64,000 nt of DNA from Pedobacter schmidteae (lineage in GTDB: Bacteria; Bacteroidota; Bacteroidia; Sphingobacteriales; Sphingobacteriaceae): positions 848-64,847 of the forward strand of contig CAMDKO010000003.1 of NCBI GenBank assembly GCA_945901155.1. The letters run 5' to 3'. The notes below the pieces were generated by a model. That model was not told the DNA's origin. It was given only the letters and a program-made list of their open reading frames with translations, and made no database searches. Made by a program: the position numbers and the translations under genes. The stretch's first letter is position 1. Every line of letters starts with the position of its first letter. Shown here piece after piece: positions 1,138 to 63,319 of the stretch.

Positions 1138-3312
1138 ATGTCATCTTTAAGATTTCAAGCACTAAATGCAGTACTTTCAAGGACAATTCCTGAAGTAAAA
1201 ATGCCTTCAACCAAACTTTCTGATTTTTATGGAAGTAATGTCTTCGATCAGAAGAAAATGAAAGATAGTTTATCTAAAGAAGCCTTTAGCAGTATTATTG
1301 ATTCGATTAATTCGGGAACTCCAATTGATAGAGGTATCTCAGAACAAGTTGCATCTTCTATGAAATCATGGGCTATGTCTAGAGGAGCATCACATTATAC
1401 GCATTGGTTCCAGCCATTAACAGGAAGCACAGCAGAAAAGCATGACTCTTTCTTTGAGCCAGGTTCTGATGGTCAAGGTTTAGAGAAATTCTCTGGTGAA
1501 GCCTTATCGCAACAAGAACCAGATGCATCAAGTTTTCCAAACGGAGGCATAAGAAGCACATTTGAAGCACGTGGTTATACTGCATGGGATCCATCATCAC
1601 CAGCATTTATCATCGGATCTACCTTGTGTATTCCTACAGTATTTATTTCTTATACCGGCGAGGCCTTAGATTATAAGGCTCCTTTATTAAAGGCTATTGG
1701 TTTAATGGATAAAGCAGCTGTTGCTGTTGCACAATACTTTGATAAAAGCATTGAAAAAATTAATAGCTCATTAGGTATCGAGCAGGAATATTTTCTTGTT
1801 GATCTTGCCTTATTTAATGCTAGACCCGACCTTTATCTTACCGGAAGAGCTTTATTTGGTCACATGTCTGCTAAAAATCAGCAATTAGATGACCATTATT
1901 TTGGATCAATTCCTGAACGTGTTCTTGCCTACATGCAAGATTTTGAAACGGAAGCCATCAAATTGGGTATTCCTTTAAAAACCCGTCATAATGAGGTTGC
2001 TCCTTCTCAATTTGAGTGTGCACCTTTATATGAGGAAATGAATCTTGCCATTGACCATAACTCTTTGTTAATGGACTTAATGGATAAAGTTGCCCGCAGA
2101 CATAACTTCAAAGTTCTTTTGCATGAAAAGCCTTATGCAGGTATCAATGGTTCAGGTAAACACAATAACTGGTCATTAATTACGAATACTGGTAAAAACC
2201 TGCTTTCGCCTGGAAAAACTCCAAAAAACAATTTGATGTTCCTTACATTCTTTGTCAATACGATCAGAGCAGTTTTTGAATATTCAGATCTTTTAAGAGC
2301 ATCTATTGCATCTGTCAATAATGATCACCGTTTAGGTGCTAATGAAGCTCCACCAGCAATCATCTCTATGTTCCTTGGAAGTCAGCTGAATGACCTGCTA
2401 GATGAAATTGAATCGTCAAGGGTAACCAACAAGATGAAGCAAGAGCCATCATTATGGACTAATATTCCAAAAATACCACAGATCTTATTGGACAACACCG
2501 ATCGTAACCGTACTTCACCATTAGCTTTTACAGGTAATAAATTTGAATTACGCGCAGTTGGATCTTCGGCTAACTCTGCCAATCCAATGACAATATTGAA
2601 CACGATCATTGCAGATCAGTTAAATAAATTCAAGGCAGAAGTTGATAAACTGATCAAAAAAGGCGAGAAAAAAGATGTTGCGATCATGACAGTGATCAAA
2701 CGTTACATCAAAGAATCTAAAGCTATTCGTTTTGAAGGCAATGGTTATAGCGATGAGTGGGCCGAAGAAGCTAAAAAAAGAGGATTGTCAAATATCAAAA
2801 CTACGCCAAAAGCGCTTGATGTTTTATTGGATCCTAAAACAGATAAATTATTTCAAGATACCGGAGTATTCAGCAAACGCGAATCACATGCACGTCATGA
2901 AATACTGTTAGAAAGTTATTTCAAAAAACTTCAGATTGAAGCAAGAGTAATGGGTGACCTGGTTGATAATGTGATTATTCCAACAGCGATCAATTATCAA
3001 ACAACTCTTATTGATAACGTAAAAGGCCTTAAAGATCTTGGCTTGGGCGAAGATACCTATGCCGCTCAGCTTGATATCATCAAGATGATATCAGGGCATG
3101 TTAACTTTATCAGAACAGCAAACATTGAAATGGTTAATGAACGTAAAAAAGCGAATAATATCGAAGATATAAGAGATAAATCTATTGCCTACGATGAGAA
3201 AGTTAAATCATTCTTTGATCCAATCCGCTATCATGTTGATAAACTTGAGCAATTAGTAGACGATTCAAAATGGCCTTTGCCTAAATTCAGAGAGTTATTG
3301 TTTCTGAAGTAG
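1138..3312 (+). CDS. glnA: Glutamine synthetase type III
   Basis: 724 aa; HYTHWFQPLTG, QEPDASSFP, RHNEVAPSQFE, GSGKHNNWS and DRNRTSP motifs of GSIII. Confidence 0.96.
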   Translation: MSSLRFQALNAVLSRTIPEVKMPSTKLSDFYGSNVFDQKKMKDSLSKEAFSSIIDSINSGTPIDRGISEQVASSMKSWAMSRGASHYTHWFQPLTGSTAEKHDSFFEPGSDGQGLEKFSGEALSQQEPDASSFPNGGIRSTFEARGYTAWDPSSPAFIIGSTLCIPTVFISYTGEALDYKAPLLKAIGLMDKAAVAVAQYFDKSIEKINSSLGIEQEYFLVDLALFNARPDLYLTGRALFGHMSAKNQQLDDHYFGSIPERVLAYMQDFETEAIKLGIPLKTRHNEVAPSQFECAPLYEEMNLAIDHNSLLMDLMDKVARRHNFKVLLHEKPYAGINGSGKHNNWSLITNTGKNLLSPGKTPKNNLMFLTFFVNTIRAVFEYSDLLRASIASVNNDHRLGANEAPPAIISMFLGSQLNDLLDEIESSRVTNKMKQEPSLWTNIPKIPQILLDNTDRNRTSPLAFTGNKFELRAVGSSANSANPMTILNTIIADQLNKFKAEVDKLIKKGEKKDVAIMTVIKRYIKESKAIRFEGNGYSDEWAEEAKKRGLSNIKTTPKALDVLLDPKTDKLFQDTGVFSKRESHARHEILLESYFKKLQIEARVMGDLVDNVIIPTAINYQTTLIDNVKGLKDLGLGEDTYAAQLDIIKMISGHVNFIRTANIEMVNERKKANNIEDIRDKSIAYDEKVKSFFDPIRYHVDKLEQLVDDSKWPLPKFRELLFLK

Positions 3313-3509
3313 TACTGAGTACTGAGTATTGAGATATGTGACACAAAGTTCTGCTTCGGCAGAACTTTGTTGTTTATAGCCATATCTCACATCTCCAATC
3401 TCATATCTCCAATCTCATATCTCAAATCTCCAATCTCATATCTCCAATCTCATATCTCAAATCTCATATCTCATATCTCATATCTCATATCTCACATCTC
3501 AAATCTAAA
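3310..3509 (+). repeat. Heptamer array A: GAGTAYT/GAGATAT arm, UUCG hairpin, then 18 ATCTC-type units
   Basis: TAGTACT GAGTACT GAGTATT GAGATAT from 3310; 18 units (ATCTCAT/ATCTCCA/ATCTCAA/ATCTCAC/ATCTAAA) at 3384-3509. Confidence 0.95.
3343..3376 (+). terminator. Probable glnA terminator hairpin
   Basis: 12-bp perfect stem ACAAAGTTCTGC / GCAGAACTTTGT with C-UUCG-G loop and a T-rich tail. Confidence 0.7.
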
Positions 3510-17222: not shown

Positions 17223-17278
17223 AGCTTTCCGCTTTAAGCTTTATCCTTTCAGCTTTATCCTTTCAGCTTTAAGCTTTC
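17223..17278 (+). repeat. Heptamer array B: 8 units AGCTTTA/AGCTTTC/TCCTTTC/CGCTTTA
   Basis: Read directly; lies 7 nt beyond the pntB stop. Confidence 0.93.
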
Positions 17279-19066: not shown

Positions 19067-19303
19067 TGTTGATTGTTGATTAAACTTTGATCTATTAGAT
19101 TACCTGAAACTAATTACTAAAATTAATTACGAATTACTAAAACGAATTACGAATTACGAATTACCAAAACTAATTACGAATTACGAATTACCAATTACCA
19201 ATTACGAAAACTAATTACGAATTACGAATTACCTAAAACTTATTACTTATAACTTATTACTTATAACTTATTACTTATTACTTATTACTTATTACTTATT
19301 ACT
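19067..19303 (+). repeat. Heptamer array C: TGTTGAT x2, AATTAC(G/C/T) units with AAAACT spacers, then 9 TATTACT/TATAACT units
   Basis: Read directly at 19067-19080, 19098-19240 and 19241-19303; the last units lie inside the pntA1 3' end. Confidence 0.95.
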
Positions 19304-20415
19304 TCCTTCACCCTTTCATTACAAACCTCACCATTATAGGTAATACAAGTACCCTTCACCAAATCATCCTCAAAATTAAGATTGATCTGTCCTTCAGGTC
19401 CAAAGATTAACTGAAGAAAATTCAAAATATTCTTTCCATAGAGCTTACTTGCATCTGAGGGCATTGTTCCTTGAAGATTTGAATTACCTATAATGGTTAC
19501 ATTTTTATAAACCACAGTTTCACTGTCTTTAGTTTGCGTAGTGTTTCCACCAGTAGCTGATGCCAGATCAATAATAAATGACCCACTTTTCATTGAATCC
19601 AGAATACTGTCAGGTAAAAGTATTGGAGCTTTCTTGCCAGGTATTTGAGCAGTAGTGATGATCACATCTGCTTTTGAAGCAACTTCAGCAATTCGCTGCT
19701 GTTGTTTTTGCTTGTACTCTTCAGTTTGATCAACAGCATATCCACCTGCTTTTGAGGCATCAAGAGCTCCTTCAACTTCAATAAATTTAGCACCCAGACT
19801 CATGACTTCTTCCTTTACAGCGGGTCTAGTATCAAATACCTCCACTACAGCTCCTAATCTCTTAGCAGTTGCAATAGCCTGAAGACCTGCTACACCTGCT
19901 CCTAATATCATTACTTTTGCTGGTGCAATACTTCCAGCAGCGGTCATGAACATTGGGAAATATTTAGGCAACTGCATAGCAGCAAGTAATACTGCCTTAT
20001 AACCTGCAATATTTGCTTGGGAGCTAAGTATATCCATACTCTGAGCCCTGGTTGTACGGGGAAGCATATCCATACTAAAGGTTGTTAAACCTTTTGCTGC
20101 CCAATCATTAATTAATACAAAATTTGAGAGCGGACTATAAACTCCTAAAACAACAGCATTCTTTTTTATTTTTTTTAAATCATCTGTTGTAAGCAGATTT
20201 ATACTGAGCAGAATATCAGAGTTCTTCAAAACATTTTCTCTAGAGCTAAGCTCAGCACCCTGCTCTGTATATAATGAGTCGGATGCATAAGCATGGCTAC
20301 CGCAATTATGCTCTGCCAATACATGAATATTTTGTTTTTTGAGTGCCGCGATGTGCTCGGGAATTAAAGAAACCCTAGATTCTGTAGTCGGTTCGCGTAA
20401 GATGCCAATAGTCAT
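19285..20415 (-). CDS. pntA: NAD(P)+ transhydrogenase alpha subunit, NAD-binding part (alpha1)
   Basis: ESRVSLIPE, PRTTRAQSMDILSSQANIAGYKAV, FMTAAG, GAGVAGLQAIATA and TTAQIPGKKAP motifs. Confidence 0.96.
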   Translation of the reverse strand: MTIGILREPTTESRVSLIPEHIAALKKQNIHVLAEHNCGSHAYASDSLYTEQGAELSSRENVLKNSDILLSINLLTTDDLKKIKKNAVVLGVYSPLSNFVLINDWAAKGLTTFSMDMLPRTTRAQSMDILSSQANIAGYKAVLLAAMQLPKYFPMFMTAAGSIAPAKVMILGAGVAGLQAIATAKRLGAVVEVFDTRPAVKEEVMSLGAKFIEVEGALDASKAGGYAVDQTEEYKQKQQQRIAEVASKADVIITTAQIPGKKAPILLPDSILDSMKSGSFIIDLASATGGNTTQTKDSETVVYKNVTIIGNSNLQGTMPSDASKLYGKNILNFLQLIFGPEGQINLNFEDDLVKGTCITYNGEVCNERVKEVISNK

Positions 20416-47701: not shown

Positions 47702-47740
47702 TGTCAAATTGACATAATTTTCTTTTGGAATAAGTATTGA
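47702..47740 (+). promoter_or_regulatory. TGTCAA-A-TTGACA palindrome plus sigma54-like -24/-12 sequence before htpG
   Basis: Palindrome at 47702-47714; TGGAATAAGTATTGA at 47726-47740 has the GG/TTG spacing of TGGCAC-N5-TTGC. Confidence 0.4.
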
Positions 47741-47774
47741 GATAACAGCTCAGATAACCTAATAAATTAATAAG

Positions 47775-49776: not shown

Positions 49777-50970
49777 ATGAATCTGCTTGATAAACTCCTT
49801 GAAAATTATCAGTCGTTTGAAGAAATTCAGATAAAAGACCGATTTTTCAAACATAACCTGATATGTGAATTATTAGATTCAATCAAAAACAATAAGGTTT
49901 TCGGTATTGAAGAGGTTGGACTGTCAACTATGGGTCGTTCAATCCATTTAGTTAAATGGGGAAATGGACCTTGCAAAGTGTTTTTGTGGAGTCAGATGCA
50001 TGGTAATGAAGCTACAGCCACGATGGCATTAATTGATCTTCTAAAATTTTTATCGCAAAATGGACTTTATAATGAAATCATAGATTCCATAGATAAAAAC
50101 TGTACCCTGTATATTTTACCAATGCTTAATCCTGACGGTGCTGAAGTTTTTACCAGGAGAAACGCGATGGAAATTGATATTAACCGCGACTTCCATAGTC
50201 AGCAAAGTCCTGAAGCTAGATTATTGCGCAAATTAAGAGATGTTATTCATCCTCATTTTGGTTTTAATTTACACGATCAGAGTACTTTATGGTCGGCAGG
50301 AAAATCTGGTAAGCCCGCAACAATATCCTTACTGGCACCTGCATATGATGAAGAGCTAAGCATCAATTCTGTACGTCAAAAAGCAATGCAGGTAATTGCA
50401 TTAATGAATGTAGAGTTACAAAAGAATATACCCGGATGTGTTGGACGATTTAACGATGAATATGAACCACGAGCTTTTGGTGATAATTTTCAGGCAGCCG
50501 GAACAAGCACCATCCTGATTGAAGCTGGAGGTTTTTACAATGATCCTGAGAAACAGTATATCCGCAAAATCTATTTTAAAGCAATTCTTGTAGGCTTAAT
50601 AAGTATTGCGAAAAAATCATACCTCAATATTGAGGATAAGGAATATTTTTCAATACCAGAGAATAAAAAATTACATTTTGATCTATTATTAAGAAATTGT
50701 AAGCTTCAAAGAAATGGAATTTCTTACCTAACTGATATAGGTTTAGTTGCTGTTGAAAAGATTAATGACGACTTGCATTCAGTAAGTCAAACCTATACAG
50801 TGGGTGAATTGGGCGATTTATCTCAATACTTTAGCTATGAAGAATTCAATTGTGAATTACATAGTATCACTGAAATAAGTAATTTAAAGATTGACGAACC
50901 AGCAGATTTAATTGTACATGATGGAAAGCATTTAGTGCTTTCAATTAAGAATGGGGTTTTAACTAATTAG
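49777..50970 (+). CDS. M14 zinc carboxypeptidase family protein
   Basis: QMHGNE, NPDG, DINRD and NLHDQ motifs. Confidence 0.9.
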   Translation: MNLLDKLLENYQSFEEIQIKDRFFKHNLICELLDSIKNNKVFGIEEVGLSTMGRSIHLVKWGNGPCKVFLWSQMHGNEATATMALIDLLKFLSQNGLYNEIIDSIDKNCTLYILPMLNPDGAEVFTRRNAMEIDINRDFHSQQSPEARLLRKLRDVIHPHFGFNLHDQSTLWSAGKSGKPATISLLAPAYDEELSINSVRQKAMQVIALMNVELQKNIPGCVGRFNDEYEPRAFGDNFQAAGTSTILIEAGGFYNDPEKQYIRKIYFKAILVGLISIAKKSYLNIEDKEYFSIPENKKLHFDLLLRNCKLQRNGISYLTDIGLVAVEKINDDLHSVSQTYTVGELGDLSQYFSYEEFNCELHSITEISNLKIDEPADLIVHDGKHLVLSIKNGVLTN

Positions 50971-51118
50971 ATATGAGTAGTGAGTATAGAGTATAGAGTA
51001 TAGAGTATTGAGATAGATTCTGCTTCATCTCAGATCTCAGACCTCATACTTCAGACTTCAGACCTCATACCTCAGACTTCATACCTCAGACAACCGATAA
51101 CCGATAACAACTAAAACA
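50968..51118 (+). repeat. Heptamer array D filling the whole spacer
   Basis: GAGTATA x3, GAGTATT, GAGATAG, core, CAGACCT/CATACTT/CAGACTT/CATACCT units, CCGATAA x2. Confidence 0.95.
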
Positions 51119-52363
51119 ATGGCATTAAACTACATCTGGATTGGCTTCTTTGTAATTGCATTTGTTGTAGCAATTGTAAAGCTTATCGTATTTGGAGATA
51201 CCAGCATTTTCAATAATGTGGTCAATGGAATGTTTGACAGTGCAAAAACAGGTGCTGAGATCTCTATTGGGCTGATTGGAATCATGACCTTCTGGTTAGG
51301 CATAATGAAAATCGGAGAACGGGCAGGAATGATCACACTTTTTGCCCGCGGTGTAAATCCGTTTTTCAGCAGATTGTTTCCTGAAGTACCAAAAAACCAT
51401 CCTGCAAATGGTTCTATTATCATGAACTTTTCGGCAAATATGCTGGGCTTAGATAATGCTGCAACACCGGTTGGCTTAAAGGCCATGCAGGAATTACAGG
51501 AATTAAACCCCCAGAAAGATACAGCCAGTAATGCGCAGATCATGTTCCTTGTTCTTAATACCGCTGGAATTACATTAATCCCTACGGGAGTAATTGCTTT
51601 AAGAATGGCTAATGGTGCGGCTAACCCTGCAGATGTATTCATTCCCTGCCTGATTGGCACTTTCATTTCATTCCTAGCGGGAATGATCGCGGTAGCTATC
51701 TACCAAAAGATCAATCTCTTTCAGCTACCAATACTCATTTTCTTTGGTAGTTTCATTGCATTAATGTCTGGGCTGTATTTTTGGCTTGGCTCACTTCCGT
51801 CAGAACAGATTCAAATATATGCGGGTCTTTTAGGTGGTATAATTATTTTTTCAATCATTACTCTGTTTATTGCTTATGGTGCATCAAAAAAAGTGAATGT
51901 GTATGAAGCCTTTATCGATGGAGCAAAAGAAGGTTTCAGTACCTCAATTATGATCATACCATTTCTTATTGCAATACTTGTTGCCATAAGTACTTTTCGC
52001 ACAACCGGTTGCATGGATTATGTAGTGAATGCTATTGGTTCATTGGTAGCTTTATCCGGACTTGACACATCGTTTGTTCCAGCTTTACCAGTAGGATTAA
52101 TGAAAACATTAAGCGGTGGAGGTGCCAGAGGATTAATGGTTGATGTAATGAAAACCTATGGTGCAGATTCATTTCAGGGCAGACTTGCAAGTATCATTCA
52201 GGGATCTTCAGAAACTACTTTTTATGTTCTTGCGGTATATTTTGGCTCAGTAGGGATCAAAAAACCAAGATATGCCATTATTTGCGGATTGATAGCCGAT
52301 CTTGTTGGTCTGATCGCTGCGATATTCCTGGCCTATTTATTCTTTGGACATACGATAAAATAA
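51119..52363 (+). CDS. SpmA/SpmB-like fused membrane protein (nucleoside-recognition gate domains)
   Basis: NFSANMLGLDNAATP, KAMQELQ, SSETTFYVLAVYFG motifs. Confidence 0.9.
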   Translation: MALNYIWIGFFVIAFVVAIVKLIVFGDTSIFNNVVNGMFDSAKTGAEISIGLIGIMTFWLGIMKIGERAGMITLFARGVNPFFSRLFPEVPKNHPANGSIIMNFSANMLGLDNAATPVGLKAMQELQELNPQKDTASNAQIMFLVLNTAGITLIPTGVIALRMANGAANPADVFIPCLIGTFISFLAGMIAVAIYQKINLFQLPILIFFGSFIALMSGLYFWLGSLPSEQIQIYAGLLGGIIIFSIITLFIAYGASKKVNVYEAFIDGAKEGFSTSIMIIPFLIAILVAISTFRTTGCMDYVVNAIGSLVALSGLDTSFVPALPVGLMKTLSGGGARGLMVDVMKTYGADSFQGRLASIIQGSSETTFYVLAVYFGSVGIKKPRYAIICGLIADLVGLIAAIFLAYLFFGHTIK

Positions 52364-52494
52364 TATTCATTTAAGATTTCCCTATCTTGATCATAGTTGA
52401 ATAACCTCTTGCAATTAATATTTTCTTAAGAGTAAGCGTCTTTCAGGTTTCAAAATATTATGCCGGAATGCTAAAATATTACTCATGTAGTTTA

Positions 52495-53751
52495 CTATCC
52501 AAACAATAAAATAGCAATAATTAAAGTTACGATGACATTAAACCCCTGTGCTATCAGAAACGCAAAAAATGGCTTTTTACTCTGTTTAGAAAACAAATCG
52601 GCAAAATTGGTTTCCAGTCCAATACTGGTAAATGCCAAGGCAAACCATAAACCCTGCAAGTTTTTAAGACTCCCTTTTATGGTACTTATCGAATCTTGAC
52701 TCAACAAAAATGAAAAAACAAGTGATGCTGCAATAAATCCTAAAACAAATTTTGGAAATCTATCCCAAATAACTTTCAATGTTGGCTTAGAAGCTATTTC
52801 GCCTGCTACAAGATTCTTCCTATAAGACCAATAAATAGATATCGCAAAAGCAGCCAGACCCAAAAGTACATTTTGAGAAAATTTAATAATGGTACTTATC
52901 TTCAGGGCTGTTTCACCAACCAATGAACCCGATGCAACTACTGCTCCTGTTGTATCAATACTACCTCCCAGCCATGCACCTGTAACTTCTTCAGATAAAC
53001 CATAATACTTAGCTATAATAGGCATAAAAATCATCATCGGTATGGCAGTAATCAAAACCATTGAAATCACATATGATAATTTTTTAGAATCACCTTTAAT
53101 GGCACCTGAGGTTGCAATTGCCGCTGATACTCCACAAATAGACACCGCACTAGAAATCATCATAGTCAGTTCATCATCTATCTTAAGTTTTTTACATAAC
53201 CAAAATGCGAAATACCATACTGATAAAACAACAATAAGGGCCTGAATTAAACCTAATGAGCCCGCTTTTAAAATATCTGAAAATATTACACTGGTTCCAA
53301 GTAAAACAAGGCCAATTTTAACAAACAATTCGGTTGAAAGTGATGATCGTAACCAGTCAGGAAGTTTAAAAAAATTGCCAATTATAAGTCCTAAAGTCAG
53401 GCTAAAGATGACTGCTTCAAGATTGACAGATTTTACAGCCGCATTTCCAGCCAGTACCAAAGCAAAAATGGTAATCAAATAAACTACAGGAAAACCTAAA
53501 GCAAAATTTTTCACAGATTTACCTGAAAGAATTGCACCAAGAATTGCTACAAGAAGCACAAATATCAATTGATAAGCAATCAGACTTAAGTTTCCAGGTT
53601 CTAAAACATTTTGAAAAAGTTCAGTAGCATTCGCCCAGTTAAATACCGGAACTTTTAAAACGACACCAAATAATGAAATAATGATGATCAGAGCGCCGAG
53701 GATAACTACTGTCCAGTCCTCTTGAATTTCAAACCTTTTTTGTTCAGACAT
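52495..53751 (-). CDS. YeiH / putative sulfate exporter family membrane protein
   Basis: VKIGLVLLG, SICGVSAAIA, GAWLGGSIDTTGAVVA motifs; start placed at ATG 53751 (MSEQK). Confidence 0.85.
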   Translation of the reverse strand: MSEQKRFEIQEDWTVVILGALIIIISLFGVVLKVPVFNWANATELFQNVLEPGNLSLIAYQLIFVLLVAILGAILSGKSVKNFALGFPVVYLITIFALVLAGNAAVKSVNLEAVIFSLTLGLIIGNFFKLPDWLRSSLSTELFVKIGLVLLGTSVIFSDILKAGSLGLIQALIVVLSVWYFAFWLCKKLKIDDELTMMISSAVSICGVSAAIATSGAIKGDSKKLSYVISMVLITAIPMMIFMPIIAKYYGLSEEVTGAWLGGSIDTTGAVVASGSLVGETALKISTIIKFSQNVLLGLAAFAISIYWSYRKNLVAGEIASKPTLKVIWDRFPKFVLGFIAASLVFSFLLSQDSISTIKGSLKNLQGLWFALAFTSIGLETNFADLFSKQSKKPFFAFLIAQGFNVIVTLIIAILLFG

Positions 53752-54001
53752 AATTTTTTTTTGAAATATTCTATTAAATATATCATTTAGTACTTGTATT
53801 GAAGTATAATAACCGCACATACCATGATCATACTCTCCCAAAAATATAATGAATTGAGTTTAAGTACCATGATCAAAACTAAAATCATCAAAAAATATTA
53901 ACCAAATGATAGATTTACACATGCAGGATCAAAATACTCAGCAAAAGAAATTGATTATTTAGGAATATTTACTCCTACAGAATATAGAATTCCAAAAAAT
54001 T

Positions 54002-54871
54002 CTATTTCTTATATTTTAATTGCACAGGAAGTGAATCTAAAGCAAAATACGTATGATCTACTATCTTTCCTTTCACGTTTATAATTCTAAATCCTGAACT
54101 ATCTGCACCTAAGGGCCTACCTACGGGGCCGGTTGTGATCATTTCCATTTCGCCAAATTTGCCATAGGCATTACGATGGTAGTGTCCGGCAAACACCTGT
54201 TTAATACCATATGTTTTGAAAAGCTCAAGATAAATTTTACGTCGCTCAGCGTTAATATTAAAATACTCATCCGCTTCATTAGAATCTTTGAGAAACAAGG
54301 AATGATGCATGAAAACCATTATATTCCTAGCATTTGACTTTTTCGCATCCTTAAGTACTTGAATCAACCATTCCAATTGGTTTGCAGCTTCAATAGGTGC
54401 AAGTGAAGGATCTTTGATCAGAGAAGAATTTAGGATGATACCCAATATATTTCCGGAACGAAAAGTGTAGCGATCATCTCCAAAATGTTTTTTATAAAGA
54501 GCTAAACTTGCAAGGGTGGGTACATTTTCAACATCGTGATTACCCGAAACACTGTATAATTTAATTGAGGGATCCAGTTTAGCGGCAATCCGCTTATATT
54601 CTGCTATCTGTGCAAGATCGCCGGGCTTATTAACCAAATCACCACAGATTACAACAAAGGCAGGTTTTAAACGGTTCGACTCAGCAATTGCCTTTTCCAT
54701 ATTGACAGTTTCTCGGCTAAACTCTTTATTAGCATTAAAAAAACCAAACTGGGTATCTGCCATTTGGAAAAATGTTAATTTGCTAGCAGGTCCAATTGAT
54801 GAACATGCACTAATAAACATTAAAAATAGAATAAGCAAGGATTTACTAAGAGTGGCTAAGGTTCTAATCAT
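54002..54871 (-). CDS. Calcineurin-like metallophosphoesterase lipoprotein (CPPED1-like)
   Basis: Lipobox ISAC; ADTQFG, GDLVN, GNHD, HH and GHYH motifs. Confidence 0.88.
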   Translation of the reverse strand: MIRTLATLSKSLLILFLMFISACSSIGPASKLTFFQMADTQFGFFNANKEFSRETVNMEKAIAESNRLKPAFVVICGDLVNKPGDLAQIAEYKRIAAKLDPSIKLYSVSGNHDVENVPTLASLALYKKHFGDDRYTFRSGNILGIILNSSLIKDPSLAPIEAANQLEWLIQVLKDAKKSNARNIMVFMHHSLFLKDSNEADEYFNINAERRKIYLELFKTYGIKQVFAGHYHRNAYGKFGEMEMITTGPVGRPLGADSSGFRIINVKGKIVDHTYFALDSLPVQLKYKK

Positions 54872-55062
54872 TTTTAAATATCATTATCTAGGATGAGTAA
54901 AACAATAAATTTTGATTTTATTGATATATATTCTACCTGAAATCTATTCCTATTCTTCAAAAAATACAATAATTTTTCAGCAACAACTATATTATTGTAA
55001 CGTTAATAGAACAGCCCTTGCCTACAATTTTATAAATTGCAGCAAAAATAATTAAAACCATT

Positions 55063-56241
55063 ATGAAAGAAGTTTATATCCTATCTGCGGTAAGAACTCC
55101 TATTGGAAGTTTCGGTGGACTACTATCTTCTTTAACAGCCAGTCAGCTAGGTGCTATAGCCATTAAAGCTGCCGTTAAACGTGCAGGAATTAATTCGGAA
55201 CAAGTACAGGAAGTGATCATGGGCAATGTATTATCTGCAAATATTGGACAAGCTCCAGCAACTCAGGCTTCAAAGTTCGCCGGACTACCGGATATTCCCT
55301 CAACTACCATAAATAAGGTTTGTGCATCAGGCACAAAAGCAATCATGTTAGCTGCTCAAAGTATCGCTTTAGGTCAGAATGATATTGTTATTGCAGGTGG
55401 CATGGAAAGCATGAGCAATGTTCCCTACTACCTAGATAAAGCCAGAAATGGTTATCGGCTTGGCGATGGGAAGATCATCGATGGCCTTGTGAAAGACGGA
55501 TTATGGGATGTTTATAATGACTACCATATGGGAACTGCTGCTGAATTATGTGCTGCAGATTGCAATATAAGCCGGGAAGACCAGGATGCCTATGCAATAG
55601 AATCCTATAAACGATCACAGTCTGCCCAATTAGAAGGCAAATTCAAAAATGAGATCGCAGCAGTTGAAATTAATGACAGAAAAGGCGAAATAAGTGTGGT
55701 TGAGACTGATGAGGAGGTCAATAACGTAAAATTTGATAAAATCCCATCATTGAAAACTGTTTTCAAAAAAGATGGGACTGTAACTGCGGCCAACGCTTCG
55801 ACGCTAAATGATGGTGCAGCGGCACTGGTATTAATGAGTAAAGAAAAAGCAGAAGAACTTGGTTTAAAGCCTTTGGCAAGAATTATTTCGTATGCAGATG
55901 CACAGCAGGCACCGGAATGGTTTACTACAACCCCATCTAAAGCTATTCCAATTGCTTTAGAACGTGCAGGAATTCAGACAAGTGATGTAGATTATTTCGA
56001 AATCAATGAAGCTTTTTCTGTAGTTTCATTGGCAAATAACAGAATTATGAAGCTTGATTCGGCAAGAGTAAATGTGAATGGTGGTGCTGTTTCAATGGGA
56101 CACCCTCTTGGAGCATCTGGTGCAAGAATAGTAGTTACTCTAATCCATGTACTTCAGCAAAATATGGGTAAAATTGGGGTTGCAGCTATTTGCAACGGTG
56201 GTGGTGGCGCAAGTGCACTAGTTATTGAAAATCTACACTAA
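55063..56241 (+). CDS. Acetyl-CoA C-acyltransferase (thiolase)
   Basis: NKVCASG, NASTLNDGAA, EINEAF, GHPLGASG and CNGGGG motifs. Confidence 0.96.
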   Translation: MKEVYILSAVRTPIGSFGGLLSSLTASQLGAIAIKAAVKRAGINSEQVQEVIMGNVLSANIGQAPATQASKFAGLPDIPSTTINKVCASGTKAIMLAAQSIALGQNDIVIAGGMESMSNVPYYLDKARNGYRLGDGKIIDGLVKDGLWDVYNDYHMGTAAELCAADCNISREDQDAYAIESYKRSQSAQLEGKFKNEIAAVEINDRKGEISVVETDEEVNNVKFDKIPSLKTVFKKDGTVTAANASTLNDGAAALVLMSKEKAEELGLKPLARIISYADAQQAPEWFTTTPSKAIPIALERAGIQTSDVDYFEINEAFSVVSLANNRIMKLDSARVNVNGGAVSMGHPLGASGARIVVTLIHVLQQNMGKIGVAAICNGGGGASALVIENLH

Positions 56242-56247
56242 GAATAC

Positions 56248-57138
56248 ATGAAGCAAGTATTACTGATCTGTTGCCTTTTCTTTTTTTTATTTACTAAAGC
56301 TTTAGGCCAGCCTTCAGGCAATAATAACCAACAGCAATTAATTGCATTTCAGGATAGTCTGAAACAGATTAGCTATAAAATGGTTAATGACAGCATAGAA
56401 CCTGAACGGTATAATGCAAGTTACAAATTGATAAAAACTCTATTAACGGCCTTAAAAACACCTTATTCTTTCGATTTTACTTTTGATTCTGTAAAATCAA
56501 TTTCAATTCAGTCGTCGTCAGATAAACGATTTAGGATTTTTAGCTGGCATGTGATGAATAATGATGGAAGCTACAGATATTATGGAACTATCCAAATGAA
56601 TAAGCCTGATGGTAAGCTAGAATTGCTTCCATTGATTGATTATACCTCCGTTTTTAAGAACCCATCTGATAGTATTACAACTAATGATAAGTGGTTTGGT
56701 GCTCAATATTATAAAATAATTCCAGTATTAAACAATGTTCCAATTCCTTATTATGTATTGCTTGGATGGAAGGGAAACACGATTAAATCAACAAAGAAAA
56801 TCATAGAAATTCTTTATTTTAAAGATGGAAAGGCACATTTTGGGATGCCTGTATTTGATGGAGATCCAGATAATTTAGGAAAAAAGCGAATCATCTTTGA
56901 GTATGATAGAAGAGCTTCTATGTTTTTGAATGATGAGCCTACGATAAATACAATCGTTTTTGACCATCTGGCTCCACCCGATCCGAAACTAAAAGGAAAG
57001 TTTGAACTGTATGGCCCTGATTTCTCTTATGATGGATTTAAACTGGTTAATGGCCGATGGAAATTTGTACAAGACCTTGAACTAAAAAACAATCCAACAG
57101 ATCAGGATGATAACTTCAATGACCCTAAAAAGTTGTAG
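56248..57138 (+). CDS. Secreted hypothetical protein
   Basis: Long ORF with signal peptide; FRIFSW, IVFDHLAP and GPDFSYDGF; no function recognised. Confidence 0.8.
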   Translation: MKQVLLICCLFFFLFTKALGQPSGNNNQQQLIAFQDSLKQISYKMVNDSIEPERYNASYKLIKTLLTALKTPYSFDFTFDSVKSISIQSSSDKRFRIFSWHVMNNDGSYRYYGTIQMNKPDGKLELLPLIDYTSVFKNPSDSITTNDKWFGAQYYKIIPVLNNVPIPYYVLLGWKGNTIKSTKKIIEILYFKDGKAHFGMPVFDGDPDNLGKKRIIFEYDRRASMFLNDEPTINTIVFDHLAPPDPKLKGKFELYGPDFSYDGFKLVNGRWKFVQDLELKNNPTDQDDNFNDPKKL

Positions 57139-57450
57139 GTTATAGGTTGTAGGTTATAAGTTTTAAGGATAAAGCTGAAAGCTAAAAGGTGAAAGCTGAA
57201 AGCCTAATTTAGCTTCATTTCATAGTAGCACTTCAGACCTCATACTTCATACTTCAGACCTCAGACAACTGAATCAAGAGCCAAGAGCCAAGACAAAGGA
57301 TCAAAGACAAAGGACAATTCAGCGCAATTTTAAAATTTCTTGATTTTTGCCATGTTCAGACCTCAGACCTCAGACTTCAGACCTCATACCTCCGACAACA
57401 GACAACTGACAACTGACAACTGATAACAGACAACTGATAACAGATAACTA
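57131..57450 (+). repeat. Composite heptamer array E (five repeat families)
   Basis: GGTTRTA (57131-57165), AGCTGAA (to 57207), CTTCAGA/CCTCATA (about 57230-57270), CCAAGAG/CAAAGGA (57274-57316), CTCAGAC then AACTGAC/AACAGAT (57355-57450). Confidence 0.95.
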
Positions 57451-58698
57451 AGGCGATACCGCCTGCATCATCAATCCAGATATATAAGCACCATAAGTTC
57501 CTATAACATAGCCAAAAACAGCTAATAGCACTCCAATGGGAGCTAAAGAAGGGTGAAAGGCACTTGCAATTACAGGCGCAGAGGCAGGACCACCGATATT
57601 AGCCATACTACCAACCGCAAGGAAAAAGAAGGGTGTTTTAGTAAGCTTTGCAACAATAAAGATCACAATAGCATGAATCAGGATCCAAACTAAACCAACA
57701 ATAAGTATACCCGGCTTATTAAAAATAGCCATGATATTCATCTGCATACCAATTGTTGCAATCAAAACATACAGCAATACGCTTCCAATTCTTGAAGCTC
57801 CTGCTCCTTCCAGATTCCTGAGCTTGGTAAAAGAAAGTATCATACCTAAAGTTGTAGCTATTATTACTATCCAAAAAAACCCTGAAGTAAGACTAAATGC
57901 GCTTAAATAAGGTGCATTAATAGTGATCCATGGAGCAATATAATCTGCTCCGAAATGAGCAATACCTGTTATACCAAACCCAATGCCCAAAATCAAAAGA
58001 ATATCTTCCATTTTAGGAATTCTCATAATACTTTGCTGATAAGCTTCAATTTTATCTTTTATTTCAGTGACCGATTGATCATTAGCTTTTAAAAAGCTGT
58101 TGATCAGCATATTTTTACCTGCGCCAAATAGTAATAAAGCCATCCAGAGGTATGAAATGAATACATCAAGAGCCACCATGGCAGAAAATAGATCAGGGCT
58201 TGGCTTAAATATCTCATACATTGCTGCCTGGTTAGCACCCCCACCAATCCAAGTACCTGCAACGGTACTTAATCCTCTCCAAACCTCTTCAGCACCCTCA
58301 CCACCTACAATTTCAGGCGCAAACAATGAAATCAAAAAAACAGCTGCTGGACCACCTAGCATAATACTGATCGAAGCAGTTATAAACATTAAGCCTGCCT
58401 TTTTTCTTAACTTCCATATTTCACTCAAATCAAGGCTTAAAGTAAATAATACCAGACTAGCAGGTAAAAGATACCTGGATGCCATGGTATAAAGAGCGGA
58501 TGTTGTACCTGAAATAATACCCATTGAATTTAACAGGCCAGGTAGAAAATAGCAAAGCAGAATAGGTGGAATAAATGTATACAGTCTTTTAAAAAATGGA
58601 ATATTGCTTTCAGATGTCCAGAAGACCAATCCGAGAATACCCATAAGGATTCCTAATACAACTGCATCGTTCGTAATCAGGGCAGAATGATCTATCAT
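57448..58698 (-). CDS. DUF819 family membrane protein
   Basis: GTWIGGGANQAAM, GSMANIGGPASAP and GYVIGTY motifs. Confidence 0.88.
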   Translation of the reverse strand: MIDHSALITNDAVVLGILMGILGLVFWTSESNIPFFKRLYTFIPPILLCYFLPGLLNSMGIISGTTSALYTMASRYLLPASLVLFTLSLDLSEIWKLRKKAGLMFITASISIMLGGPAAVFLISLFAPEIVGGEGAEEVWRGLSTVAGTWIGGGANQAAMYEIFKPSPDLFSAMVALDVFISYLWMALLLFGAGKNMLINSFLKANDQSVTEIKDKIEAYQQSIMRIPKMEDILLILGIGFGITGIAHFGADYIAPWITINAPYLSAFSLTSGFFWIVIIATTLGMILSFTKLRNLEGAGASRIGSVLLYVLIATIGMQMNIMAIFNKPGILIVGLVWILIHAIVIFIVAKLTKTPFFFLAVGSMANIGGPASAPVIASAFHPSLAPIGVLLAVFGYVIGTYGAYISGLMMQAVSP

Positions 58699-58823
58699 TT
58701 ATGTAGATTTTTATTTAAAGAATATATAAAGCATCAATTTTAGTAAAATTTAATTATAATTGAGCTTTTTACTTCCTTAATCAATTACAAGATCTCAATA
58801 AACTAACCCATCAATTAAATTAT

Positions 58824-60185
58824 ATGGAATTACAACAAAAACAACTTTTTGGACATCCCAGGGGTTTATATATCCTGTTCCTTACAGAAATGTGGGAAAG
58901 ATTCAGTTTTTATGGAATGCGGGCACTTTTGGTGCTTTTCCTAGTTTCATCGGTTAATGGAGAAAATCCAGGATTTGGATGGACAAGTAGCGAGGCCTTA
59001 AAGTTGTATGGTATTTATACATTTCTTGTTTATTTATCGTCGATACCTGGCGGAATCCTTGCAGATAAATTAATCGGCCAAAAAAAGGCCGTAATTTTAG
59101 GTGGCATTCTTTTGGTTGCAGGGCATAGTATTCTTGCATTCCAGTCATTGATTACATTTTATGTAGGACTAGGATTAATAATTGCTGGAGTAGGCTGTTT
59201 AAAGCCAAACATTTCAACAATGGTTGGTGGTTTATATCCAAAAGGCGATGACCGTCGTGACAAAGGATTTACTATTTTTTATATTGGAATCAATGTTGGA
59301 GCATTCCTGGCAGGTATAATTATTGGATATGTAGGCGAAACCATGGGCTGGCATTATGGCTTTGGACTTGCGGGTATTGGAATGGCCATAGGTTTAATTA
59401 TTTTCATATTGGGTCATAAGTATCTTCAGGGAGTTGGAGAAGCAACTAAAACCCTATCTCTTGAAGATCAAGCAATAAAAAATAAGCCTCTTACAGCAAT
59501 AGAAAAAGATCGTGTTAAAGTGATGTTATTATCTTTCCTGATGATCATTGTATTCTGGGGAGCATTTGAGCAAGCCGGAGGTTTAATGAATCTATATGCT
59601 GCTGAAAAAACAAACAGAGTGATCGATTTTCTGAACTGGACTGTTCCTGCAACCTGGTTCCAGTCTGTCAATTCATTCTTTATTATAACATTGGGAATAC
59701 CAGTAGCGGCATTCTGGTTTAATAGAAAAAGAAATGGAAAAGAAGCATCATCTATATTCAAAATAGCCATTGGAGTAATTATCATGAGTTGGGGGTTCCT
59801 TTTCATGACAGCGGCTTCAGCTCAATATCAAAATGAAGGTTCTTCAGCAATGTACTGGCTTGTATTGGCGTACCTTTTCCACACCATTGGAGAACTCAGT
59901 GCATCACCTGTTGCTTTATCTTATATTACAAAACTAGCACCCATGAAATATGCTTCAATCATGATGGGTGTATTTTTCGCAGCTACTGGCTTGGGCAATT
60001 ATGTTGCTGGCTGGGTTGGTGTTTGGTCACAAACTGCAGGAGAATTTGAGATATTTATGGGAATAGCTATTTTCTGTACACTCATTGGAGGTATCGTTAT
60101 TTCTATCCTTAAACCATTAAAAAGGCTTGCGCATGGTGCTGAAGATTTCTCAGCAGAGACTATGGCATCCCTTAAAGCTGAATAA
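58824..60185 (+). CDS. Proton-dependent oligopeptide (POT) MFS transporter
   Basis: EMWERFSFYGMR, LKPNISTMVG, FYIGINVG and GELSASP motifs. Confidence 0.95.
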   Translation: MELQQKQLFGHPRGLYILFLTEMWERFSFYGMRALLVLFLVSSVNGENPGFGWTSSEALKLYGIYTFLVYLSSIPGGILADKLIGQKKAVILGGILLVAGHSILAFQSLITFYVGLGLIIAGVGCLKPNISTMVGGLYPKGDDRRDKGFTIFYIGINVGAFLAGIIIGYVGETMGWHYGFGLAGIGMAIGLIIFILGHKYLQGVGEATKTLSLEDQAIKNKPLTAIEKDRVKVMLLSFLMIIVFWGAFEQAGGLMNLYAAEKTNRVIDFLNWTVPATWFQSVNSFFIITLGIPVAAFWFNRKRNGKEASSIFKIAIGVIIMSWGFLFMTAASAQYQNEGSSAMYWLVLAYLFHTIGELSASPVALSYITKLAPMKYASIMMGVFFAATGLGNYVAGWVGVWSQTAGEFEIFMGIAIFCTLIGGIVISILKPLKRLAHGAEDFSAETMASLKAE

Positions 60186-60197
60186 TTAAAAAAGATA

Positions 60198-60230
60198 GAA
60201 TAGAGAGATGTTAAATGCATCTCTCTATTC
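60198..60230 (+). terminator. Terminator hairpin after the POT transporter
   Basis: 13-bp stem GAATAGAGAGATG / CATCTCTCTATTC. Confidence 0.75.
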
Positions 60231-60241
60231 GTTTAAAGCAG

Positions 60242-60249
60242 TATATTTG
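60242..60249 (+). promoter_or_regulatory. -7 promoter element of the GT2 gene
   Basis: TATATTTG, 19 nt before GTG 60269. Confidence 0.65.
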
Positions 60250-60268
60250 TAATCACAAATTTTAGTCC

Positions 60269-61018
60269 GTGTTATCAGACAGCCTTGTCATCATTCCAAC
60301 CTACAACGAGAAGGAAAATATCGAAAATATTATTCGAAAAGTGTTTTCCCTTCCTGATGTGTTCCATATTCTGATAGTTGATGACGGTTCGCCGGATGGG
60401 ACAGCAACCATTGTTAAGAGCCTTCAAAAAGAATTTGAGGGAATACTTCATATAGAAGAACGTAAAGGAAAACTAGGACTCGGAACAGCCTATATTCATG
60501 GTTTTAAATGGGCTCTTAAACAACAATATGAATATATTTTCGAAATGGATGCAGATTTTTCACATAATCCGAAAGATCTGATCAAATTAAAATCGGCCTG
60601 CATTGAGGGTTCTGATCTTGCCATTGGTTCAAGATATATAAAAGGAGTAAATGTGGTAAACTGGCCAATGAGCAGGGTTTTAATGTCTTATTTTGCTTCT
60701 GTTTATGTACGTTTAATTACCAGAATAACTATTCAAGATGCTACAGCTGGATTTAAATGCTACCGTCGTATTGTTCTTGAAACTATTCCTTTAGATAAAA
60801 TAAAGTTCATTGGATATGCATTTCAAATCGAAATGAAATTTACGGCAATCAAATTTGGTTTTAAGGTGAGCGAAGTCCCTATTATCTTCACTGATCGTAC
60901 AGAAGGGACTTCAAAAATGAGTACCCGTATTTTCAGAGAAGCCTTTTTAGGTGTGATACAGATTAAATTGACTAGTTTTTTCAGAGATTATTCTAGGAAT
61001 TTAGATTCGAAAAAATAA
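60269..61018 (+). CDS. Polyprenol-monophosphomannose synthase (GT2)
   Basis: IIPTYNE, VDDGSPDGT, GLGTAY, MDADFSH and FTDRTEGTSKM motifs. Confidence 0.92.
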   Translation: MLSDSLVIIPTYNEKENIENIIRKVFSLPDVFHILIVDDGSPDGTATIVKSLQKEFEGILHIEERKGKLGLGTAYIHGFKWALKQQYEYIFEMDADFSHNPKDLIKLKSACIEGSDLAIGSRYIKGVNVVNWPMSRVLMSYFASVYVRLITRITIQDATAGFKCYRRIVLETIPLDKIKFIGYAFQIEMKFTAIKFGFKVSEVPIIFTDRTEGTSKMSTRIFREAFLGVIQIKLTSFFRDYSRNLDSKK

Positions 61019-61068
61019 GAATTGAATTTTATATTTATATAACTAATTAACATTGACCTCCTGAACCT

Positions 61069-62088
61069 ATGAACGAAAACTTGGACCCCGCCGAAGAAAA
61101 TCTTTCACCTGTAGAGCGGGAGATAGAAAAAGTTCTTCGTCCGCAGGTTTTTGAAGATTTTACAGGACAACATAAAATTCTCGCTAATCTTCGAATATTT
61201 GTTCAGGCGGCAAAACTGAGAGGTGAAGCACTCGATCATGTGCTTTTGCATGGTCCTCCAGGATTGGGAAAAACTACCCTATCGCATATTATTGCGAATG
61301 AAATGGGAGTAAATATTCGTATTACATCCGGACCAGTATTAGATAAACCAGGTGACCTAGCAGGTTTACTTACTAACCTAGAAGAAGGAGATATTCTTTT
61401 TATTGACGAAATTCATCGTTTAAGTCCACTGGTTGAAGAATACCTGTACTCTGCAATGGAAGATTTCAAGATCGATATCATGCTTGAAACTGGCCCTAAT
61501 GCCCGCTCCGTACAAATTTCTTTAAATCCTTTCACACTTGTTGGAGCCACCACCCGCTCCGGACTTCTAACAGCTCCTCTAAGAGCGCGATTCGGAATAA
61601 ACAGCCGTTTGGAATACTATGACGCCAAATTGCTTACAACCATTGTATTGCGTTCGGCAGAAATTCTGAAAACTGAAATCTCAGATGAAGGCGCCTATGA
61701 AATAGCTCGAAGAAGCCGTGGTACACCCCGTATTGCAAATGCCTTGTTACGACGCACCCGTGATTTTGCTCAAATAAAGGGCAATGGGAATATTGATACA
61801 GAGATTGCTAAATATGCTCTAAATGCACTGAACGTAGATGAGCATGGATTGGATGAAATGGATAATAAGATTCTGATCACCATTATTGATAAATTCAAGG
61901 GCGGCCCAGTTGGTTTAAAAACAATAGCCACCTCCGTTGGAGAAGAAGAAGGAACTATTGAAGAAGTTTATGAGCCATTCCTGATTCAAGAAGGATACAT
62001 TATGCGCACCTCAAGGGGAAGAGAATGTACTGAAATTGCCTACAAACATCTTGGCCGTATAAAATCAGGTGGAAATACCTTATTTTAA
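61069..62088 (+). CDS. ruvB: Holliday junction branch-migration helicase RuvB
   Basis: [28 protein letters not shown] and YEPFLIQ motifs. Confidence 0.98.
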
Positions 62089-62232
62089 TCTCCCTTTTTG
62101 ATTGATAAGGATATAATCAATTTAACAAGAGTTATTCTAGGCTCTGACCTTTTTTCTGTTAGAATGGATGATTATCCATGCTCATCGCGAATCAAATATT
62201 CATATACTGGTTTTCTTAAAAGGCATATTTTC

Positions 62233-62240
62233 TATATTTG
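62233..62240 (+). promoter_or_regulatory. -7 promoter element of queG
   Basis: TATATTTG, ending 9 nt before ATG 62250; the TTG start in the ORF track lies inside it. Confidence 0.65.
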
Positions 62241-62249
62241 AACTACATA

Positions 62250-63179
62250 ATGGTCAATAAAAGTCAATATTCACAGTTTATAAAAGCAGAAGCCCTAAAA
62301 CTGGGTTTTATGTTCTGTGGTATATCAAAAGCGGGATTCCTTGAGGAAGAAGCTCCACGACTTGAAAACTGGCTTAAAAATGGTTATAACGCAGAAATGA
62401 GCTATATGGAGAATCATTTCGATAAACGTCTTGACCCCCGTAAATTGGTTGATGGAGCTAAATCAGTCATATCATTAGCCTTAAATTATTATACTGATCA
62501 GAAACAAAAAGATCCCTTTGCGCCTAAAATAAGTCAGTATGCTTTTGGTGATGACTACCATGCCGTAATTAAAGAAAAACTGAACCTATTAATGGCTGTT
62601 ATTAAGGATGAGATTGGTGAGGTTAGTGGCCGTTCCTTTGTTGATTCTGCACCTGTACTTGATAAAGTATGGGCAAAAAAAGCAGGATTAGGTTGGATTG
62701 GCAAGCATACGAACCTAATCAATAAAAATTCAGGTTCTTTTTTCTTTCTTGCAGAATTGATCCTTGATCTTGATCTGGAATACGATAGTGCACCAACAAA
62801 AGACCATTGTGGAACCTGTACAAAATGTATAGATGCCTGCCCTACTGATGCAATTGTTGATCCTTATGTTGTGGATGCAAGCAGATGTATTTCATACCTA
62901 ACAATTGAATTGAAAAATGAACTTCCCGTAGAGTTTAAGGGCAAAATGGATAATTGGATGTTTGGCTGCGATATTTGCCAGGATGTTTGCCCCTGGAATA
63001 AATTTTCTGTACTCAATACTGAACCTTTATTCAATCTAGGAGATGAACTTTTAGAATTAACACAGCGAGATTGGCAGGAAATTACTGAGGACACCTTCAA
63101 AAAGGTATTCAAAAACTCAGCTGTTAAAAGAACAAAATTTAATGGATTAAAGCGGAATATTGATTTTTTAAGGTCTTAA
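62250..63179 (+). CDS. queG: tRNA epoxyqueuosine(34) reductase
   Basis: [28 protein letters not shown] and [13 protein letters not shown] motifs. Confidence 0.95.
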
Positions 63180-63186
63180 TTTTATT

Positions 63187-63318
63187 GTCTGAAGTATGAG
63201 GTCTGAGGTCTGAAGTGCTGGAATGAAATAAGGCAGTATCTATCTCAATACTAAAACTAACTATCCAATAGCTGACAACAGATAACTGTTAACCTACAAC
63301 TGATAACCGATAACTCAA
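63187..63318 (+). repeat. Heptamer array F
   Basis: GTCTGAA GTATGAG GTCTGAG GTCTGAA arm, core, then GACAACA/GATAACT/TACAACT/GATAACC arm. Confidence 0.9.
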
Positions 63319-63319
63319 T

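Follow-up and report, generated by a model that had tools for sequence, protein, structure and literature searches.

The window analysed here is a stretch of 64,000 nucleotides of Pedobacter schmidteae, a freshwater bacterium of the family Sphingobacteriaceae, positions 848-64847 of contig C3 in a draft assembly of 2.74 Mb, 191 contigs and 37% G+C (labelled G000; other genomes carry labels such as G004 or G008). Between its genes lie arrays of tandem heptamers, designated A, D, E and F, that enclose short non-periodic cores. The evidence supports a common family of modular intergenic repeats, specific to one clade, of which the arrays are copies; A belongs to it more loosely than the others. 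Array A as a whole is a unit of the GAGATNT family made up of a G-arm, a hairpin and a C-arm. Array D is a single module on the minus strand, array E consists of two minus-strand modules followed by AGCTTTY and AACYTAY arms, and array F is a short plus-strand module followed by an inverted GTTRTCW arm. The parts of the four arrays are as follows.

3311..3336, plus strand: left arm of array A, three AGTACTG units and AGTATTGAGATA; G-type strand of the CWMTACT family, the final unit being GAGATAT.
3344..3369, plus strand: centre of array A, a terminator-like 11-bp hairpin, CAAAGTTCTGC-TTCG-GCAGAACTTTG, with GAAGCAGAA on the minus strand.
3381..3506, plus strand: right arm of array A, 18 units of CATATCT, CAAATCT or CCAATCT; C-type strand of the GAGATNT family, reading towards the start of the next gene.
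50976..51010, minus strand: C-type arm of array D, five CWMTACT units (4, 5 or 6 copies depending on the sample).
51004..51026, minus strand: core A of array D, GAAGCAGAATCTATCTCAATACT.
51032..51087, minus strand: G-type arm of array D, eight GARGTMT units.
51088..51108, minus strand: three GTTRTCW units of array D, of the TAACTGA type (GATAACC on the mRNA strand), stopping 10 nt before the ATG at 51119.
57135..57197, minus strand: distal arms of array E, four AACYTAY and four AGCTTTY units, both C-type, adjoining the 3' end of a gene for 296 amino acids.
57212..57262, minus strand: module 2 of array E, core A2 (GTGCTACTATGAAATGAAGC), with four GARGTMT units before the core on that strand.
57272..57355, minus strand: core of module 1 of array E, a diverged core B (...AAAATTGCGCTGAATTGTC), followed on that strand by CTTKGYT units.
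57358..57448, minus strand: G-type arms of module 1 of array E, eight GTTRTCW and then five GARGTMT units, running outward from the stop codon of a DUF819 gene; a one-unit polymorphism is present among samples.
63191..63211, plus strand: three GARGTMT units of array F, outward from the queG stop codon.
63215..63252, plus strand: cores of array F, core A2 and core A (GTGCTGGAATGAAATAAGGCAGTATCTATCTCAATACT), with one CAATACT unit.
63268..63315, minus strand: inverted arm of array F, degenerate GTTRTCW units running outward from the stop codon of the minus-strand gene.

Arrays D and F share blocks of sequence that are not heptameric. Array D on the minus strand (...TCTGAAGTATGAGGTCTGAGATCTGAGATGAAGCAGAATCTATCTCAATACT) and array F on the plus strand (TCTGAAGTATGAGGTCTGAGGTCTGAAGTGCTGGAATGAAATAAGGCAGTATCTATCTCAATACT) are identical over a left block of 20 nt, TCTGAAGTATGAGGTCTGAG (20/20), and match at 19 of 20 positions in a right block, GCAG[A/T]ATCTATCTCAATACT, just as an earlier reading of the window, made from its sequence only, had described. 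The core that this sequence-only reading assigned jointly to E and F is also there: array E (minus strand) carries TCTGAAGTGCTACTATGAAATGAAGC, its counterpart in F is TCTGAAGTGCTGGAATGAAATAAGGC, and the two have TCTGAAGTGCT-N3-ATGAAAT in common. Array A had been likened to D. On its minus strand it does contain GAAGCAGAA and TATCTCAATACTC as well as a shared 12-mer, but the two blocks are separated by 12 extra bases and GAAGCAGAA forms one arm of the hairpin at 3344-3369 (fold z = -6.4). A is a loose relative only.

The window contains five copies of the 12-mer, AGTATTGAGATA, compared with 0.58 expected, and none of 100 shuffles reached five. Four of these sites had been named before and described as always intergenic; the fifth, at 50819..50830 on the minus strand, lies within the coding sequence of an M14 peptidase and seems to be a chance match outside the element. 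In G000 the 12-mer has 21 sites, 18 of them intergenic by a crude call of open reading frames, and the 20-mer GCAGAATCTATCTCAATACT has eight exact copies. More generally, non-periodic cores of 16-36 nt are repeated exactly at many loci, with stretches of up to 23 nt at 8-10 loci. When the heptamer units within the 198 repeat islands of the genome were shuffled in 500 rounds, the observed count was never attained for any core, and the core pattern written in reverse without complementation found no match in any of the genomes searched. The cores therefore exceed what shuffled heptamer arrays produce by chance, the control that the sequence-only reading had proposed.

Heptamer periodicity extends over the whole of G000. 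Tandem Repeats Finder reported 498 rows with a period of 7, far above the neighbouring periods, as well as 166 with a period of 14 and 103 with a period of 21. A periodicity scan delineated 198 heptamer-periodic islands totalling 14.2 kb, and 176 of them fall between genes, even though coding sequence makes up 89% of the genome; islands are found in 109 of 1540 gene spacers, or about 7%. All assemblies used are draft metagenome-assembled genomes (MAGs). Contig ends are at most 300 nt away from 24 of the 198 islands, several contigs of sister species stop inside modules, and because the repeats break short-read assemblies the copy numbers given here are lower bounds. The islands draw on a small vocabulary of heptamer families, which differ from one another by one or two substitutions: GTTRTCW, GARGTMT, CWMTACT, CTTKGYT, GAGATNT, AGCTTTY, AACYTAY/ACTTATT and CGTAATT. 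The first of these, with 227 windows of three consecutive units in G000, is the complement of GAYAACW, itself a rotation or one-base variant of the published TAACTGA heptamer.

Alignment of all 12-mer copies and a listing of the longest islands revealed a module with the structure 5'-(GTTRTCW)n-(GARGTMT)n-core-(CWMTACT)n or (CTTKGYT)n-3', which is present singly, in tandem and in either DNA orientation. The order of its parts is directional. With the G000 sequence tokenised into array families and cores, CTTKGYT was followed by GTTRTCW 16:0, GTTRTCW by GARGTMT 27:0, CWMTACT by GTTRTCW 8:0, core A by CWMTACT 10:0 and core B by CTTKGYT 19:0; GARGTMT led 14 times to core B and nine times to core A or A2, and GAGATNT led seven times to core C. 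Reverse transitions in G000 numbered zero. The same order was found in a replication set of 45 core-A loci (304 kb) from five sister species, with ratios of 28:1 for GTTRTCW to GARGTMT and 40:0 for core A to CWMTACT.

G000 holds 16 copies of core A, GCWRAAT(N)TATCTC, and 26 copies of core B, GCAGAAAATTTCAATTAGCAC and variants thereof. Two copies on contig C40 read core A, a CWMTACT array, CAAATTAGCRC-N-GTC and then CTTKGYT, suggesting that core B may be a core A whose CWMTACT array has collapsed to a single unit. A check by eye of cores B and C for promoter-like boxes (-33 TTG, -7 TAnnTTTG) found none that was convincing. Core A2 contains an ATG-AAA-stop 'minigene' (63215-63234 and 57212-57231) that varies among copies, being TTTGAAATGAAGC on contig C138 and at locus L070, and GGAATGAAGCTAAAT on contig C91; the motif is not conserved and is probably not a reading frame under selection.

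The sequence-only reading had envisaged copying in either orientation. Modules do occur in both DNA orientations, but not freely: a polarity rule ties their orientation to the flanking genes. In G000 the G-type strand is read outward from the nearest gene, at 5' and 3' gene ends alike. GTTRTCW reads outward 47:6 (21:2 in the sister-species loci) and GAGATNT 17:0; AACYTAY (23:1), CTTKGYT (8:0) and CWMTACT (5:0) read inward. Where one spacer contains GTTRTCW in both orientations, the arrangement is always 5'-GTTRTCW...WGAYAAC-3' (12:0 in G000, 7:0 in the sister species). At gene starts the mRNA strand carries only GAYAACW, ANATCTC, AACYTAY or CGTAATT, and 18 of the 20 arrays within 40 nt of a start codon read GAYAACW; the CWMTACT and CTTKGYT ends adjoin stop codons 12:1. 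In spacers with islands the inward-reading strand has a C-over-G skew of +0.37 at 5' ends and of +0.31 at 3' ends; the corresponding values for spacers without islands are +0.09 and 0.00. G-poor leaders are thus a mild general trait of G000, but at 3' ends the polarity is peculiar to the repeats.

The arrays change on two time scales: by slippage in steps of 7 nt within a population, and by turnover of whole modules between species. Ten other metagenome contigs from the same population differ from the window only by whole 7-nt units and by G/T swaps of units. The array D region, measured between fixed anchors, is 186, 193 or 200 nt long in these contigs and array E differs by 7 nt; the cores are invariant, as is the 12-mer relic at 47733. 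In sister species (~92% identical), orthologous spacers hold different numbers and kinds of modules, and nine orthologous spacer pairs showed replacement of modules and no precise insertion. Upstream of the gene for a Gate-domain protein, for instance, the number of modules is one in G000 and three in G004; G008 has other modules together with a CCCGATAGCTATCGGG palindrome within a GAYAACW array. In more distant relatives there are short hairpins of inverted GTTRTCW/GAYAACW, or the ATG is preceded just by NAACTNA heptamers. Two type II toxin-antitoxin cassettes of G000 lie between direct repeat modules (Zeta_toxin, C16:33910-34633; ParE_toxin, C65:7356-7900), and the same two spacers in Daejeonella ME2015 and the P. 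schmidteae MAG contain modules only, with no cassette. In Daejeonella ME2015 (locus L080) the core of array F has as its left-hand neighbour the orthologue of a gene on contig C127 and not queG, so that synteny breaks exactly at the array (window positions 63180-63320).

Core A is confined to a narrow clade. An exact-pattern scan of one genome per species, covering 185,579 species and possibly leaving out G000 itself, returned five carrier records besides G000, all of them freshwater Sphingobacteriaceae MAGs: Loclat bin-18560, RH-26jul17-262, two Daejeonella sp. from Lake Mendota and one 'Pedobacter schmidteae' MAG. The only other hits were two single chance matches. Within the family, core A is restricted to one of 37 genera (301 genomes), and the flanking genes of the carriers are 91-94% identical to those of G000 at the nucleotide level. 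GTTRTCW arrays are more widespread than the core: of 25 genomes sampled from the genus 15 contain them, as does one genome from a different family. Three more distant members of the genus have the GTTRTCW to GARGTMT junction with other cores, which implies that the order is older than this core. The recurrence of exact non-periodic cores, the conserved order of array types, the restriction to one young clade and the gain, loss and replacement of modules at orthologous spacers all bear out the earlier claim that the arrays are homologous and did not arise by independent slippage.

The window contains three further heptamer features:

17223..17278, plus strand: eight AGCTTTY units shortly after the RNase P RNA gene (16737-17120, 263 bits), the sole Rfam match.
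19125..19304, no strand assigned: an island belonging to the same heptamer system, with units of the AATTACG and ACTTATT families.
47733..47759, plus strand: a relic mini-module, AGTATTG-AGATAAC-AGCTC-AGATAAC, just upstream of the htpG start and invariant in the ten population contigs.

A palindrome, CCGATAGCTATCGG, was noticed at 34 sites in G000, among them C2:13015, C63:1703 and C91:481, and also at loci L027 (G008), L095 (G020) and L099 (G016). It is located within or at the apex of heptamer arrays, and also at the centre of a dispersed repeat of ~150 nt (...TATGAAAGGTTCTGCGAGGGC...GGTTATTAAAGGTCTGTGTCCGTAGGACTCC...). Some copies are flanked by short direct duplications (GTGAC), and the palindrome resembles the very small dispersed repeats of cyanobacteria.

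The same heptamer families flank genes of the 23S_rRNA_IVP family (PF05635; IVP genes below). Four or five of the six IVP genes in G000 are bordered by inverted arrays, with the G-arm first: GAGATNT/ANATCTC at C55:2160, AATTACG/CGTAATT at C21 (the arms of this cassette are thus of a family seen in the window island at 19125..19304), AACAAGG/CCTTGTT-like arms at C55:3939 and, at C65, a GTTRTCW arm whose far-side partner, WGAYAAC, is present in Daejeonella ME2015. At one orthologous cassette, in the gap between a fadB-like and a thiolase gene, the arms are GAGATNT in G000 and G006, and GAGTAKT/CWMTACT in G008 and G004. Of 14 genus genomes, 12 have IVP genes; the two without them are those that lack GTTRTCW arrays. 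No IVP gene was found in the window, nor did any turn up at the 45 core-A loci from the sister species, and a literature search for IVP with the four-helix bundle returned nothing. An IVP gene of G000 at C14:34616-34930 has inverted arms of 8-mers and sits between nuoF-like and nuoG-like genes, that is, inside an operon.

The best explanation, which we regard as probable, is that the arrays belong to one modular family that was spread by host recombination through the shared arrays. The modules would be propagated by the host's own replication and recombination, with the long heptamer arrays common to many spacers (50-100 nt of near-identity) serving as homology arms. The unique core could then move from one spacer to another by ectopic gene conversion, unequal crossing-over or template switching, and replication slippage would afterwards resize the arrays. 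Their polarity may have been inherited from, or selected in the same way as in, hairpin cassettes with the G-arm first, and an RNA-level filter might act on it, leaders always carrying the G-poor, ATG-free strand. The sequence-only reading had offered mobility or gene conversion, an apt pair of alternatives; the evidence leans to recombination, with no consistent target-site duplication (TSD) or terminal inverted repeat (TIR) and no co-occurring enzyme among those searched for.

Host recombination is the most likely copying route given how the alternatives fared. The outer flanks of 90 composite regions gave an inverted match of 3.90, compared with 3.98 in controls, and hence no TIR; a slight excess of direct matches in the same regions came from array remnants and had no common length or sequence, so that there is no consistent TSD. 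A miniature inverted-repeat transposable element (MITE) was rejected on these grounds, and for want of fixed ends and of clean filled and empty sites. The sequence-only reading had also suggested looking for a co-occurring REP-associated tyrosine transposase (RAYT/TnpA; REP, repetitive extragenic palindromic) or reverse transcriptase, and neither accompanies the modules. Y1 transposase genes (PF01797, Y1_Tnp) are absent from the carrier G008, which is 100% complete, and present in non-carriers. G000 does have a Y1 gene of the IS200/RAYT-like type at C20:7094-7447, but short GCTNAAGC-loop hairpins of its own (GGTGCTTCAGCGCC, GGGCTGAAGCCC, CCAGCTAAAGCTGG) lie on either side of it and constitute a separate REP-like family; RAYT/Y1 was therefore rejected as the mobiliser. 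The RVT_1 profile had no match in the four carriers G000, G004, G008 and G249, which speaks against a retroelement origin (retron, diversity-generating retroelement or telomerase-like). The integron integrase profile TIGR02249 matched only generic tyrosine recombinases below the cut-off; with no IntI, and with modules spread over 109 spacers instead of collected in one array, integron cassettes (attC) were rejected too. RNA folds of arrays D and F were no better than those of shuffled sequences (z from -0.95 to +1.2) and their arms are not complementary. Among the arrays tested by folding only A has a real hairpin, and a REP unit or bacterial interspersed mosaic element (BIME) was rejected because D and F form no stable hairpin. 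No Rfam family matches the arrays at gathering score, and four freshwater metatranscriptomes yielded only short contigs of similar arrays from other loci.

Several points weigh against spread by host recombination. No conversion tract or recombination intermediate was observed directly, and the mechanism is accordingly deduced from absences. The enzymes found wanting are a dedicated transposase, a reverse transcriptase and an integron integrase; DDE transposases and serine recombinases were not screened. As the assemblies are draft MAGs with 24 islands at contig ends, an enzyme gene or some copies of the element may be missing. Recombination as a passive process does not by itself account for the polarity at 3' ends, and the presence of the same heptamer families at the IVP cassettes leaves room for an element-encoded factor.

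Alternatively, the modules would be first and foremost cis-elements maintained by selection, acting as sites for RNA- or single-stranded DNA-binding proteins that recognise heptamers (a cold-shock protein, ribosomal protein S1 or Rho), as unstructured leaders or as bidirectional boundaries, with copy number tuning expression. Such a role has been proposed for TAACTGA repeats (PMC4679880) and for the heptamer repeats of Nostoc (bioRxiv 10.1101/2022.06.06.494920). It would fit the strictness of the strand polarity, the separate sets of families at gene starts and stop codons, the repeat-specific skew at 3' ends and the retention across the genus of NAACTNA-type heptamers right before the ATG of the same gene. 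Nevertheless, orthologous spacers of species that are ~92% identical contain different modules or none of the same kind, which is evidence against a locus-specific function, and arrays D and F have neither significant RNA structure nor an Rfam match. We also know of no heptamer-binding protein. Whatever function the modules have we infer from these patterns, and we consider selection as cis-elements a doubtful explanation.

A mobile origin, with modules moved in trans, seems to us unlikely. The modules would be non-autonomous mobile elements or gene-less derivatives of hairpin cassettes, mobilised by an element-encoded or dedicated factor such as the IVP product. The IVP genes between inverted, G-arm-first arrays of the GAGATNT, AATTACG, GTTRTCW and AACAAGG families point this way, as do the change of arm family between species at one orthologous cassette and the presence of modules in both orientations at many loci. 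The joint absence of IVP genes and GTTRTCW arrays from two of 14 genomes also fits, but these are the two most distant genomes and the comparison is confounded by phylogeny. Neither the window nor the 45 sister loci contain an IVP gene, no TSD or TIR was found, the module arms of D and F do not pair or fold, and we are aware of no mobilising activity of IVP proteins. A more specific proposal derives the modules, as arms with what is left of the loop, from a widespread hairpin cassette that in its intact form contains a four-helix-bundle 23S_rRNA_IVP gene; it is equally improbable. If true, however, the IVP cassette would seed and spread heptamer arrays into spacers, which would explain the universal G-arm-first polarity, and it could be the broader origin of the heptamer repeats known from Cyanobacteria, Beggiatoaceae and Bacteroidota. 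Independent slippage at each locus, with the likeness stemming from a few favoured heptamers, is extremely improbable: alleles in 7-nt steps show that slippage is real and the families are only one or two substitutions apart, but exact non-periodic cores at 8-10 loci that no unit shuffle reproduced, and an array order without reversals in G000 that recurs in the sister species, refute it.

To our knowledge, intergenic heptamer repeats, both the short tandemly repeated repetitive (STRR) sequences and those of the TAACTGA type, have been on record since 1990 without a mechanism or a function. The cyanobacterial STRR sequences, which are tandem heptamers, were reportedly described by Mazel et al. 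in 1990. Other intergenic repeats are also mosaic. BIMEs and REPs of enterobacteria and the BOX elements of Streptococcus pneumoniae are modular, dispersed, copy-variable and non-coding, with ordered sub-motifs that are palindromic units or boxes, and REPs accompany RAYT Y1 transposases. The elements described here are likewise mosaic and modular with ordered sub-motifs, but are made of microsatellite arrays. With MITEs they share being short, non-coding, dispersed and multi-copy in both orientations; they differ in having no TIR, no consistent TSD and no fixed ends. The 23S_rRNA_IVP hairpin cassettes (cf. the intervening sequences of 23S rRNA), as represented in G000, have the same heptamer families and the same G-arm-first polarity, whereas the modules of the window are gene-less and their arms belong to different families and remain unpaired.

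The closest likeness is to the TAACTGA repeats. MacGregor described these heptamer direct repeats in 2015 in marine Beggiatoaceae, some Cyanobacteria and five Bacteroidetes (PMC4679880). They lie between genes in forward orientation, immediately before start codons, are patchily distributed and arise by a mechanism that is not known; in some Bacteroidetes they are mixed with other heptamers, 7-nt indels distinguish strains, and cold-shock protein (Csp), S1 and CsrA were suggested as binders (PMC4679880). The present elements resemble them in the unit (here GATAACT, GACAACT or GATAACC), in their intergenic, forward position before start codons, in being mixed with other heptamers, in their patchy occurrence and in the 7-nt steps between strains. 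They differ in having modules with fixed non-periodic cores, a directional order of families and a polarity that extends to 3' ends, features absent from the description in PMC4679880. For the contiguous heptamer repeats of Nostoc PCC 7120, effects on expression have been reported (bioRxiv 10.1101/2022.06.06.494920). These and the STRR sequences are similar to the present arrays in comprising few families, in being contiguous and intergenic near promoters and start codons, and in their unresolved function; the phylum and the units are different, and we found no conserved cores or directional order reported there.

The elements of the window are a detailed example of a known, still unexplained class of repeats. 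They turn a vaguely defined class into testable rules on the strand that faces a gene and on the families found at gene starts and stops, and they raise the question whether IVP cassettes are the source. The clade lends itself to such experiments because cultured relatives exist in Daejeonella and Pedobacter. Compared with the known systems, what is new here is that the modules have cores without periodicity, a directional order and a polarity that holds at both gene ends, that they change on two time scales, and that their vocabulary is held in common with the IVP cassettes.

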